A DNA stretch of 64,000 nt from Octopus vulgaris (lineage: Eukaryota): positions 14,694,001 to 14,758,000 of the forward strand of contig OX597834.1 in assembly GCA_951406725.2 (NCBI GenBank), in the 5' to 3' direction. The notes under the pieces were generated by a model. It was not told the DNA's origin. It made no database searches and saw only the letters and a program-made list of their open reading frames with translations. Each line of letters opens with the position of its first letter. Position 1 is the first letter of the stretch. Positions 7,303 through 60,303 of this stretch are shown piece by piece. Both the position numbers and the translations under genes were made by a program.

Positions 7303-7518
7303 GTTAATCCAAACAAGAAAGCACAAAAAAAACACCACAACGCGAGGACGTGGAACAAATATAGTATTATTGGACGCTCAGGAAAGAAGGAAAGAAGGAG
7401 GGTTTAACGTTTCCAGCGGAGCTCTTCGTCGGAAACATAGGAGAAGGAAAGATCCAGAGAATGGAAGACAGAGGAAAACAAAATCGCCAACGGTACACAC
7501 GCGGTCACAGATTCACCT
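7303..7518 (-). mobile_element. Short TA-embedded element carrying a hammerhead-like motif (related to family E)
   Basis: Flanked by (TA)n on both sides; shares TTCCTGAGCG and the HHR-like block with 11028-11156 and 53881-54052. Confidence 0.6.
7402..7436 (-). ncRNA. Minimal hammerhead-like motif, U4C core
   Basis: Minus strand: gttt-CCGACGA-a-gagc tcc gctg-GAAA-CG-TT-aaac. Stem I gttt/aaac; stem II has one mismatch. Confidence 0.55.
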
Positions 7519-8026
7519 ATATATATATATATATATATATATATATATATATATATATATGTATGTATATGCAAACACACACAGACACACACACATTAGA
7601 TAGTGCACGTGAGTGTGTGAACCAGTACTTCGGCTGGAATATGAGAAAGGTGGTATAAATTGATTCCGGTACTTATCAAGATATACTCGAATAGTTTTAG
7701 ATATGTAGCAAATTCCTCAATATACGAGTAAATTCCTTCCTGGAGAATACTCGTAAAGCGGGTAATCGTAAAGTAAGGTATATGTATATACACCCGCACA
7801 GATGCTCGCGCATATATACCTTCGTATTTGGCTAAATTTGATTCTTCTAAATTATTCTAACGCCTCAGGCTTGAATACGTGGAGCACTTCAAACTGAAGA
7901 CTATGCATTGGAGAAAACCCTTTTCCTTATAATCATATATATATATGTATATGTGTCTATATACATATATACGTAATCTGATCAATAAGTATCCGGACTG
8001 TTGCTATAGCAACGAAGCTAAAGCAC

Positions 8027-8369
8027 TCGTCTCCTTATGAGAGCTCAAAATCTCTCGTGGAAACGCCATCCAACCAAAATGCAAATACATGGGAAACTAC
8101 CACCTGTGTCATCTCTTGTGAACGGTAGGAGAGTCCAGTTTGCTGGACATTGTTGTAGAGCTGAAAAAGAAGTAATTTCTACTCTTCTCCTCTCTGGATA
8201 CCACAATACTCACAATACCAGAGGGCGCACACTCTCCTACCCTGATGTAATCTCCAGGGATACAGGCATCCAGCAACAGGACCTCCGTAACGCCATGATG
8301 AACCGTGAAGTCTGGCGTAGCATGGTAAATTCCATTGTCTCGACCACGGTCGAACAATGATGATGATTG
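8027..8369 (+). mobile_element. 5'-truncated LINE 3' end (RTE/RTE-X-like) with (TGA)n tail
   Basis: ORF 8037-8360 reads LSWKRHPT..RRVQFAGHCCR..YPDVISRDTG..AMMNREVWRSMV, matching the RTE-type C-terminal pattern; ends tgatgatgat. Confidence 0.78.
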
Positions 8370-8707
8370 CTATACACGCGCACAGATGCTCGCGCATATA
8401 TACCTTCGTATTTGGCTAAATTTGATTCTTCTAAATTATTCTAGCGCCTCAGGCTTGAATACCTGGAGCACTTCAAACTCAAGACTATGCATTGGTGAAA
8501 ATCCTTTTCCTTATAATCATATACCTATGTACGTTTAAATATTTGTTGTGCAAGATTTTTTATGTGAAGTCGTTTGTTGAAACAGATATTGTTGTATTTA
8601 GGAATGGTCATTTTGTCAGTTTAGCCAATAAAAACACACGCACTATATATTTGGTGTTACTTTGCTTCAGTGTTATTTATTTTTTACATTAATCTTAATC
8701 TTATTTC

Positions 8708-8752
8708 GGCCAGAGTTCTTTCGTCACACTCCTGTGACCGCATCAGTGGTCC
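8708..8752 (-). ncRNA. Hammerhead-like motif inside the 8531-8796 insertion
   Basis: Minus strand: ggacca-CTGATGC-g-gtcaca ggag tgtgac-GAAA-gaac-TC-tggcc. A9C deviation; perfect 6-bp stem II. Confidence 0.6.
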
Positions 8753-8823
8753 TTTGTTTTCTTCTTACTTATTTGTGTCTCTCCTTACTAACTGGCATAT
8801 GTATACGTGTCTATATACATATA

Positions 8824-9830
8824 TACGTAATCTGATCAATAAGTATCCGGACTGTTGCTATAGTAACGAAGCTAAAGCACGGAGGGTAAAGCCGCTCGGC
8901 ACAGATTGACCTTGGACGAACCTGAGCATTCGCATTAAAATTTAACGTTCTAGCTCCTTCCGCTGTTTAGAGCAATACTTGGAAGCATAGAGTATGGCGT
9001 GTGATCGTAGCATTGACCATGACAGAATATTGAGCAGAGAATTTGCACCAAATTTTGTCAAAAGCTTGGTGATATCTGCTCACAGGCCTACGCAAACTTT
9101 ACAAAAAAGCTTTCATCCTTCTTGACGCAATCCAGGACAATTTGTGCATCGTAAACCCGTGTTTCGTTTTGGTCAGCTGAAAGCAGTTTTGGTACAAATT
9201 AGGCAGACACGCGTCTCATACCCTCTTTTACTCTTTTACTCTTTTACTTGTTTCAGTCATTTGACTGCGGCCATGCTGGAGCACCGCCTTTAGTCGAGCA
9301 AATCGAACACGGGACTTATTCTTTGTAAGCCCAGTACTTATTCTATCGGTCTCTTTTGCCGAACCACTAAGTAACGGGGACGTAAACACACCAGCATCGG
9401 TTGTCAAGCAATGCTAGGGAGAGAAACACAGACACACAAACATATACAGACACACACACACATATATATATATATATATATACGACTGGCTTCTTTCAGT
9501 TTCCGTCTACCAAATCCACTCACAAGGCATTGGTCGGCCCGGGGCTATTAGCAGAAGACACTTGCCCAAGATGCTACGCAGTGGGGCTGAACCCGGAACC
9601 ATGTGGTTGGTTAGCAAGCTACTTACCACACAGCCACTCCTGCGCCTATACCCAAATCTTCAGTAATAATGGACTGCACAGAATGGTAACTAATCTGCAC
9701 AACCTCTGATAACTCACGGATGGTGACTCAACGATTTCCCTCACAACTCCATGCACAGCTACGATGTTTTTTCTTAGCTCTGCTGGTTGTAGGTCTCCCA
9801 CATCGTTCGTCACTATCGACTTTTCCAGCT
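8824..9830. mobile_element. Rearranged mariner remnant interrupted by a family A SINE
   Basis: TIR-like tacgtaatctgatcaataagtatccggac. Plus-strand EQRICTKFCQKLG resembles a mariner N-terminus. Minus-strand IITEDLGMRRVSA*FVPKLL resembles the WVPxxL region and is split by the SINE with ATACCC duplicated. Confidence 0.72.
9223..9648 (-). mobile_element. SINE family A, full length
   Basis: Head, internal microsatellite and (GAGTAAAA)n tail all present; ATACCC on both sides. Confidence 0.9.
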
Positions 9831-58300: not shown

Positions 58301-58569
58301 GTTTTCATTTTGCTTAATGTGCTTTTCTTTTTTTGCTTTTCTTTACTATTTTTGTTATTGTTGTGTTTCTGAAAACGTTTTATAAATAAGGAATTTGGCA
58401 CGTACAGATCTGCTAATTATGGACAAACTAGCAGGAAATCTGCAACAAGAAGAATGTCGATCATATATATTTTTGTGGAATTTATCTATACACGAAGGCA
58501 ACACAAACAGAAGTGCAAAACAAAGAATATAGAAAATAGTGTATTATATATGGAAATGATCGAAAGACG

Positions 58570-59190
58570 ATGAGCGAACAAAATACAGAGACAGACCGAG
58601 ATATTCAGAGTGAGAGAGAGTAAGAAAGTAAAAGGAAGGAGACATAGAGCGAGACACAAAGAGGCAGAGAGAATGAGACAGAGAGAATGAGACAGAGAAG
58701 GAGAGTTCGAGACAGAGACACACACATTTAATGCGAGAGACACACAACGAGAATCAGAGATACAGAGGTAGAGGCGGAGAATCACAAAACTAAAGAGTTA
58801 GTGAGTCACAGAGTGAGAGAAATAGAGAAAGCGAGAGCGAGAGAGACAGAGACTCAGAACGAGAGAGGAGAGACGTAGGGACACAGAGTGAGCGACGGAG
58901 AAACAGTGAGATGGTGACACAAACGGCGACAGAAACAAAGAGGGAGAGAGACTAAGAACGAGAGACGAAGAGATATAGAAAGAGAGAGAGAGAGAGAGAG
59001 AGTCGAAGTGACAGTAAGATGGTGAAACAAAGGGCGAAAGAAGCAAAGAGGGAGAGAAAAACGAAGAACGAGAGACGAAGAGACACAGAGCGAGAGACGA
59101 AGAGACACAGAGCGAGAGACGAAGAGACACTGAGATGGTGACACAAAGGGCGAAAGAAGCAAAGAGGAAGAGAGTGACTAAGAAAGAAAG
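58570..59190. repeat. GA-rich low-complexity region with 22-bp internal repeats
   Basis: cgagagacgaagagacacagag about x3, and a repeated gatggtga.acaaa.ggcga block. Confidence 0.8.
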
Positions 59191-60119
59191 CAAAAATAGC
59201 ATTGAAATGGTTATGTGTATGAGTATTTATACTTACGTTTGTCATTAGAGGAATCTTTGAGGATGGACAATTTTCTAAAAGAAGCCATTTAGAATTATCC
59301 ATCGTTTATATATATTATGGATGAATCTTTGGTCTTTATCACCTGGACCATGGTTTCAGATTTCACCTAGCCAATTATTACATTTCCTAAAAAAAATTCT
59401 GAAACCATTGGTCCAGGAGTTAGATGGTAAATGTATTTTTACTTTCCATTCCCTTCGAAGTTTATCCCTAATAGTGGTTTCTATGTTAGCTGTTCCTTCT
59501 AGCGTGCAAGAAATCCTATGACGGATAACTCGAATGTGTTTAAATGTACACTTTATATATATATATATATATATATATATATATATATATATATATATAT
59601 ATATATATATTAATAAAAGGAATTCCAACCTTGTCTGATTTTCACGTTTTATTTACAATCTTATAATGATATAATATAATATAATATAATATAATATAAT
59701 ATAATAAATAAAATAATAAAATAATAGCATGTTAAATGTCCATTCTGATTGAACTAGTACTTTCATGCATTAAATTCTGCAATCTTCATGTAGTAGTGGT
59801 GACAATCATGCTTCACAATTTTTGACTGTGAGGTATATATACAGGCACCCGTATATAAATATATATATATATATATATATATATATATATATATAAAATA
59901 AAATATTAGGGAATAAATCCAAACTTACAGGGAAAAATCAGATTTAGGATTGAATCAACTTTTATAGTAAAATATTATATTATATTAAATTAGAGATAAA
60001 ACCACTATTAGGCAAATCATACAATGAAAACCTTAAGCCAATACATAAGATTATTTAATTTATATTATTTAAATATATATCAAAATTATTAAAAAAGATA
60101 ATTAATATAATTAATATAA

Positions 60120-60183
60120 CACTACGATCGTTTCATGGCTGTTCAATTCTTAAAATTTTCGAGTTACAGTCATTCTTCAGGTG
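60120..60183 (-). ncRNA. Minimal type-I hammerhead ribozyme, canonical core CUGAAGA
   Basis: Minus strand: cac-CTGAAGA-atgactgt..acagccat-GAAAC-GATC-GTA-gtg. Confidence 0.8.
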
Positions 60184-60239
60184 GTTTAAATATTTAAATA
60201 TTTAACTTGATTAAACCTCGCCAAGTTAAATATTTAAAC

Positions 60240-60303
60240 CACCTGATGAATGACTGTAACTCAAAAATTTTAAGAATTGAACAGCCATGAAACGATCGTA
60301 GTG
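60240..60303 (+). ncRNA. Minimal type-I hammerhead ribozyme, canonical core CUGAUGA
   Basis: cac-CTGATGA-atgactgt..acagccat-GAAAC-GATC-GTA-gtg. Predicted cleavage after 60300. Confidence 0.8.

Follow-up and report, generated by a model that had tools for sequence, protein, structure and literature searches.

The 64,000-nucleotide stretch of Octopus vulgaris DNA analysed here (contig OX597834.1, positions 14,694,001 to 14,758,000; hereafter the window) is 34% GC and rich in (TA)n tracts, in a genome of 2.8 Gb. An earlier note, made from the letters alone, listed twelve loci in it that resemble minimal type I hammerhead ribozymes with variant cores. The 3' half of such a motif, GAAA followed by a short segment and UH, is present at all twelve coordinates, and all twelve assign to repeat families, nine in number (A to I); queries with these families find no additional copies in the window. 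As a whole, the loci are best explained, with a probability of about 0.82, as short 3'-end copies of several families of Penelope-like elements (PLEs), each carrying the minimal hammerhead of its family.

The twelve hammerhead loci

Family A is represented by a short element at 7303-7517 (minus strand), between (TA)n tracts, whose motif (7402-7436) has the core CCGACGA (U4C) and has lost its G10.1-C11.1 pair in this copy. The 3' end of an autonomous PLE of family B occupies 8519-8792 (minus strand) and matches the 3' end of locus L289 at 95%. Its motif (8708-8752) reads CUGAUGC (A9C) at 8746-8740, with a predicted cut after 8713 and a non-palindromic GAAC segment. The short element of family C lies at 10385-10612 (minus strand, ends approximate), and its motif (10557-10595) combines the core UUGAUAA (U3-A8) with the palindrome CGCG and a predicted cut after 10561. 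Family D is present twice on the plus strand: a copy at 11028-11157, between (TA)n tracts, is 5'-truncated inside the core and is devoid of C3 and of the 5' strand of stem I; the second, at 53881-54054, is the 3' end of a Neptune-like autonomous PLE from this family linked to open reading frames (ORFs), and its motif (53918-53955) has the core CUGUUGA (A6U) at 53923-53929 and a predicted cut after 53950. Family E forms a head-to-head inverted insertion (20120-20449) between (TA)n tracts, with a PLE tail on its right arm only. Its two motifs, at 20202-20251 (minus; stem I of 7 bp, stem II of 5 bp, palindrome ATAT) and 20267-20316 (plus; core at 20274-20280, predicted cut after 20309), share the core GUGAACA (G3-C8).

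The family F copy is delimited by its repeat match (39126-39285, plus strand) and contains a motif (39184-39235) with the core CCGAUGA, typical of a U4C subfamily, and the palindrome CAGCTG. Family G is a degenerate copy (48644-48876, minus strand), 74% similar to the 3' region of PLE locus L033, in which a motif remnant (48722-48765) retains UUGAUAG, a weak stem II, and the palindrome CCGG. The family H sequence (59611-59840, minus strand) is the 3' end of an autonomous PLE, 90% similar to the 3' ends of L095/L097; its motif remnant (59751-59790) bears a 6-nt deletion over stem I and core that intact copies lack. Finally, family I forms a second head-to-head inverted insertion between (TA)n tracts (59896-60426), with the canonical cores CUGAAGA (60120-60183, minus; palindrome CGATCG) and CUGAUGA (60240-60303, plus; predicted cut after 60300).

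The type I topology (open stem I, stem II hairpin, GAAA, UH) is whole in 8 of the 12 loci and is found for all nine families in genomic or related copies, in G only in a degenerate state. The single architecture claimed for the twelve loci thus stands for the 3' half, but four copies are broken (7402, 11028, 48722, 59751), 8708 has a non-palindromic GAAC segment, and 20202/20267 and 60120/60240 are one inverted insertion each, which reduces the twelve loci to ten insertions. Seven of these ten adjoin (TA)n tracts, as had been described, and those at 8708, 39184, and 48722 do not.

A structural descriptor that allows any Watson-Crick 3-8 pair and U4C, and requires stem III to be palindromic and stems I and II to have 3 bp or more, matches six motifs in the window (10557, 20202, and 60120 on the minus strand; 20267, 39184, and 60240 on the plus strand). 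Dinucleotide shuffles (global and local, 3 x 40) give means of 0.125-0.2 and a maximum of 2, and the reversed window gives none, so that the motif population anticipated by the earlier note for such a relaxed search is real. One extra core deviation yields 8 matches versus 1.8-2.4 in shuffles; with two, the window holds 18 versus 10-12 and the signal is mostly chance. The proposed density of one per 5-6 kb does not extend beyond the window: the 441 kb flanking 221 other loci, a non-random sample, contain 18 intact motifs (3 in the reversed control), about one per 25 kb, and the same rule gives 7 in the window. The higher figure includes broken copies and inverted doubles.

Searches with generic models are silent on these loci. 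No Rfam hammerhead reaches gathering score in 8 loci, and none is found among the 150 listed of 341 weak window matches, which are microsatellites matching miRNA models; microsatellites likewise dominate the repeat search of the window. Within the window, tblastn detects no remnant of a PLE ORF, and there is no tandem array of short units each with a whole hammerhead.

Cores across the genome

Genome-wide counts were obtained with exact patterns, each count being a lower bound with a reversed-pattern control of 0, and letter tallies are hand counts over the first 100 motifs listed. Family D is the most abundant family found, with at least 18,676 CUGUNGA motifs (U6); when stem I is fixed, 8,447 motifs remain and A6 occurs in just 44, and none of the four letters is scarce at N7 (A24, C26, G14, U36 of the first 100). 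Family A has at least 7,179 motifs, with C4 in 82 of the first 100, and family B at least 3,527, with C9 in most and A9 in 3 of the first 100. Among the at least 4,901 motifs of family E, 123 are without G3 and 276 without C8, and C3-G8 occurs in a single copy among the first 100 of the 123 non-G3 motifs. Family H counts at least 1,792 intact motifs (C4 in about two thirds of the first 100), family I at least 593 with a canonical core, family C at least 492 with U3-A8, and family F at least 39, most of them CUGAUGA with a C4 minority. An older and decayed family, K, has 21 motifs with a CUGANGA core, one of them behind a related ORF.

The CUGANGA core is therefore found in I, most of F, and older H, and not in A, B, C, D, or E. 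Two of the twelve window loci have it, in line with the prediction that a strict search would miss most of them, and on the genome scale searches based on it miss at least ~30,000 motifs (the A to E counts summed, minus their canonical minority). Core conservation over genomic copies, the absence of which the earlier note counted as partly refuting, is observed, with 39 to 18,676 motifs per family. Since the variant cores are family-wide, fixed over hundreds to thousands of copies, they characterise the families and do not reflect decay. Positions 3 and 8 form a Watson-Crick pair in every family, and the 15.2-16.2 segment is palindromic in every family except B (GAAC). An extra base after A9 and a G10.1-C11.1 pair are found in A, B, D, and E; stem II starts with A-U in C, F, and I, and with U-U in H. 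A further count, 25,905 versus 1,349, mixes registers with double counting and serves as a rough bound only.

In assembled contigs of sequencing runs (organism labels A-D), no family E core variant reaches 5%, and loop II varies there. Position 6 of family D shows no variants in run contigs labelled C, D, F, and G, a weak result as N7 does not vary there either. Three other accounts of the cores were considered and rejected. G3-G8 copies of family E as an intermediate subfamily are not evident among its non-G3 and non-C8 motifs. An alternative register of the D core (UUGAAGA) breaks stems I and II and would place the variable letter at U4. Decay of CpG does not account for U4C, as most A motifs have C4, which is also the mark of the tandem, ORF-intact subfamily of H.

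To note, one family E copy (L372:1501-1545) has a canonical C3-G8 pair within a complex inverted arrangement; it may be an old relic, a recombinant, or a double back-change. A further very abundant family with a canonical core and a 6-bp stem II is absent from the window (G000:C1:585830 and many others; L215:5124-5169).

Carriers of the motifs and other repeats

A search of the genome for GIY-YIG domains gives 148 matches among 150 scored candidates, many in long open frames. The motifs of B, D, E, and H lie 0.4-1.1 kb behind PLE reverse transcriptase (RT)/GIY-YIG ORFs elsewhere in the genome, and family G is connected through relatives, being 71-74% like the 3' end of PLE loci L031/L033. The attribution of the loci to minimal type I hammerheads of the Penelope kind, in several families, is borne out, as is the proximity to such ORFs that the earlier note suggested looking for. 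In 24 of 30 ORF loci, the E motif follows the ORF on the same strand at a distance of ~1.0-1.1 kb, and the E protein is an 839-residue open frame whose GIY-YIG domain is over the Pfam cut-off. The B motif follows at ~540-550 nt (L289) a 994-residue frame, 54% identical to that of E. The D motif stands behind a Neptune-like ORF in 20 of 30 ORF loci, and this ORF was scored in 117 copies at 92-100%. Family H forms 4,271-nt tandem units with a 775-residue ORF, whose product is over the Pfam cut-off for GIY-YIG and below it for RVT_1. One PLE family carries a U3-A8 minimal hammerhead 400-950 nt behind a 781-residue ORF.

The D and B proteins are assigned by tblastn/blastp and motifs only, the D fragment having no Pfam match. 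The D protein, Neptune-like by motif, harbors DKG and a CX4CXXC linker (CX2-5CXXC in the Neptune clade). The E and B proteins exhibit DKS, YVDD, and CXXC-X7-C, where the Hydra clade has DKT, a divergent RT4, and CxCX5C, and they do not resemble published Hydra sequences; they (L297:3855-5438, L289:3280-4824) are 21-28% like other PLE proteins of this genome and match neither the Hydra nor the Neptune motifs compared. In the L092 and H families, an upstream ORF of ~450-480 residues precedes the RT ORF (L110:768-2207, L447:3358-4722); that of L110, the sole one scanned, has no convincing Pfam match.

The carriers had been described as non-autonomous, which does not hold for B, D, E, and H in view of their RT/GIY-YIG parents, and may hold for A, with C, F, and I as possible further cases. 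Family A is ~200 nt long with a fixed 5' end, is ~71% like D over 88 nt, and has no same-strand upstream ORF in 30 + 30 loci; taken together, these features make it probable that A derives from another element and is non-autonomous. In L457/L481, A has an inverted D-like ORF at its side, which is suggestive only. Two other associations were discarded: the ORF that precedes C in L252/L445 is part of an older D-type element, and the one preceding E in L146/L182 is that of a neighbouring PLE.

Family copies are solo or inverted and end at fixed points past the cut site, without circular permutation at H17. Among 30 unbiased E loci, 19 are inverted and 17 have a tail; 28 of 30 E copies are short, and their 3' end takes two alternative positions ~60 nt apart. 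The preference for (TA)n tracts, proposed earlier, is clear: a tract lies within 16 nt of the 3' end in 27/28 A, 27/30 D, 19/29 E, and 18/28 I copies, far above a background of 0.07-0.10. Short E copies mostly start at one point ~18 nt before stem I (L146:1470-1500, L181-L210; window 20254-20266), and 480 copies keep the stretch upstream of it, which resembles a branch point, a pyrimidine tract, and an AG acceptor. This point may mark where transcription starts or where an intron adjoining helix I ends, as reported for D. virilis Penelope.

The window also contains other repeats. A repeat of ~240 nt, presumably SINE-like, is interspersed at 13837-14079, 21981-22211, 22633-22867, 38373-38608, and 61064-61306, and four tandem 183-nt units at 36328-37060 (93% matches) are related to it. 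Ten 116-nt tandem units (97% matches) occupy 15351-16528, and a 344-codon open frame at 30511-31542 (plus strand) displays LINE-type reverse-transcriptase motifs by eye.

Catalysis, alternatives, and known systems

A PLE origin of the loci is very likely. According to the PLE literature, two motifs in a tandem-element transcript would pair via their palindromic stem III and cut after H17; reverse transcription would initiate at an AT-rich nick and inside uncut RNA, ~100-160 nt beyond the motif; and short pieces like those in the window would result from 5' truncation or inversion. The solo and inverted copies would then be mostly inert end-pieces, the inverted ones because read-through of such a pair would fold into one long hairpin. 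The motif, if it works at all, likely cuts only slowly, as a pair in tandem transcripts, and aided by the protein of the element. Family E would have kept catalysis through a compensated C3-G8 to G3-C8 swap and is probably active. Families D (A6U), B (A9C), and A and H (U4C) would keep the fold with a weakened core. The A6U and A9C cores are predicted to be weak, yet the D and B families have spread, and activity of these two in vivo is somewhat doubtful.

Comparison between families gives some indication of selection on the fold. B, E, and K can be aligned from stem I through the extra G and stem II to GAAA (9 of 10 rows used, one wrongly oriented row being ignored); K and B have C3-G8 and E has G3-C8, so that from a K-type CUGANGA core B differs by A9C and E at both positions 3 and 8. 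The palindrome of C is CATG in 91, CTAG in 6, CGCG in 2, and non-palindromic in 1 of the first 100 motifs listed, which amounts to double substitutions; stem I of A differs from that of D by a G-C to C-G pair; and D subfamilies differ at N7 and H17. In E, whose sister lineages have C3-G8, the G3-C8 swap compensates naturally at a tertiary pair of the active state, an argument for selection on catalysis. Family D points the other way: it should be crippled, yet no family found is more numerous, an argument for catalysis that is relaxed or rescued by protein.

Several observations weigh against motifs that all fold and cut as PLE hammerheads. The D stems are nearly invariant between subfamilies and so give no sign of covariation after A6U. 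In minimum-energy folds of D, A, C, and F monomers the core pairs with the GAAA strand, unconstrained cofolding does not yield the ribozyme dimer, and the palindromic duplex is weak for A, D, and E (-0.2 to -1.7 kcal/mol). Position 17 of D is C or G in 440 motifs, G17 being no rarer than C17, which is uninformative. No circular joints are found among assembled contigs, which cannot show RNA ends, and 30 loci each of C, F, and I yield no partner ORF, nor do the loci of A. A mutational scan from 2023 found low activity for every single change in the CUGA region (PMC9901934), so that A6U and U4C may mean a dead core. As a separate observation, a short motif common to A and D, ~25-30 nt beyond the hammerhead (window 7370-7380 and 53970-53985), could base-pair with stem II on its 3' side; an off-switch is possible.

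The most serious competing explanation shares the same origin but holds that the variant motifs, chiefly A6U in D and A9C in B, have lost cleavage, and that the fold serves another job such as protein binding, positioning of the reverse-transcription start, splicing, or RNA pairing. We regard it as credible, at distinctly less than even odds. It would explain how the most abundant family can combine A6U with more than 100 near-identical ORF copies, and all genomic copies derive from uncut RNA in any case; catalytic mutants of the anole PLE hammerhead still insert in vitro, no RNA-seq reads ended at the cut site of that element (PMC11167929), and Naiads spread without hammerheads (PMC8557442). 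It accommodates less easily the 3-8 pair, a tertiary pair of the active conformation (PMC3884650) that is kept by double changes in E (G-C) and in C and the L092 family (U-A), or the variation of D at N7 and H17, which are free positions of the catalytic consensus.

The view of the earlier note, non-autonomous carriers of the retrozyme type cycling via small circular RNAs, is improbable. It draws on the small size, fixed 5' end, and missing same-strand ORF of A, on the 28 of 30 E motifs that lie in short copies starting near one point, on the ORF links not found for C, F, and I, and on the derivation of retrozymes from PLE repeats (bioRxiv 10.64898/2026.07.22.740005). It is already refuted for B, D, E, and H by their coding parents, and the absence of hammerhead arrays in the window, together with solo or inverted copies that end past the cut site and are not permuted at H17, argues against it. 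That a loose pattern merely matches AT-rich, repeat-rich DNA by chance can be dismissed: the near-background count at two core deviations and the silence of Rfam are what this would give, but the strict count is above all 120 shuffles, each locus belongs to a family of tens to thousands of copies with a control of 0, and four families sit at the known PLE position, so that this reading is refuted.

PLE hammerheads cut poorly alone, one needs its protein, and insertion in vitro did not depend on catalysis (PMC4209133, PMC11167929), which raises the question of their purpose. The families of this genome form a natural series of cores, each with the protein that belongs to it: canonical cores in K and I, compensated ones in E (G3-C8) and C (U3-A8), and uncompensated ones in D, B, A, and H; such fixed changes at supposedly essential core letters, in several very abundant families, would allow testing whether PLEs need self-cutting RNA. 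A bolder and rather unlikely proposal is that protein-aided PLE hammerheads explore cores closed to free hammerheads, with active natural G3-C8, A6U, and A9C cores in recently mobile lineages of one genome. If true, the core would be 'invariant' only in RNA that works without protein, and standard searches would overlook such ribozymes by the tens of thousands in a genome.

The kind of element described here has been known since 2014 as minimal PLE hammerheads, which have no stable stem III and cut weakly as dimers, U3-A8 forms included (PMC4209133). The window families share with them the type I fold, a stem III that is palindromic or missing, an extra base after A9 (in A, B, D, and E), a place in the 3' repeat following RT/GIY-YIG, several families with solo copies in the thousands, the U3-A8 variant, and pairs on opposite strands. 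They differ from the published consensus CUGANGAH: the legible rows of Fig. S3 of that paper vary only between C3/U3 and G8/A8, and contain no cephalopod, G3-C8, U6, C9, or C4 row.

Inverted copies, tails, and (TA)n targets are known traits and PLE norms (PMC8557442), and PLE reverse transcription starts internally at two sites, leaving a tail, with a nick that is AT-rich (PMC11167929). Neptune- and Hydra-clade PLEs, including Hydra-1_Obim (Craig et al. 2021, PMC8557442), share with the window families the inverted 5'-truncated copy, the one-end tail, and the (TA)n tracts, and Neptune PLEs share the DKG motif and CX4CXXC linker of the D protein; among the differences, Hydra-1_Obim has a canonical core and a different protein. 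Animal non-LTR retrozymes (bioRxiv 10.64898/2026.07.22.740005) also bear type I hammerheads in short repeats related to those of PLEs, but they form tandem arrays, whereas the copies here are solo or inverted and four families have coding parents.

Among natural variants, Perreault et al. 2011 (PMC3088659) list U3-A8, the low-activity A6C of phage Bcep176, a viroid U4C, and U10.1-U11.1. Here U3-A8 recurs in C and G, U4C in A, H, and part of F, and a stem II starting with U-U in H; in that work they are rare single cases, and its text, figure aside, is without G3-C8, A6U, or A9C. U3-A8 and U4C are thus already published. No natural G3-C8, A6U, or A9C PLE hammerhead was found in the literature searched, which excludes most subscription papers and figures; as far as this literature goes, new here are the family-fixed G3-C8 (E), A6U (D), A9C (B), and U4C (A, H).

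The closest parallel to family E is an engineered one. The anole PLE hammerhead cuts only with protein, and a C3G/G8C double mutant partly rescues it (PMC11167929); in a type III hammerhead, the 3-8 swap is the sole activity-restoring double change in the CUGA region, the others being low (PMC9901934). Family E has exactly this swap. It differs from the engineered mutants in occurring naturally, in being fixed across ~4,900 copies as well as in intact elements, and in having C3-G8 sister lineages in the same genome.

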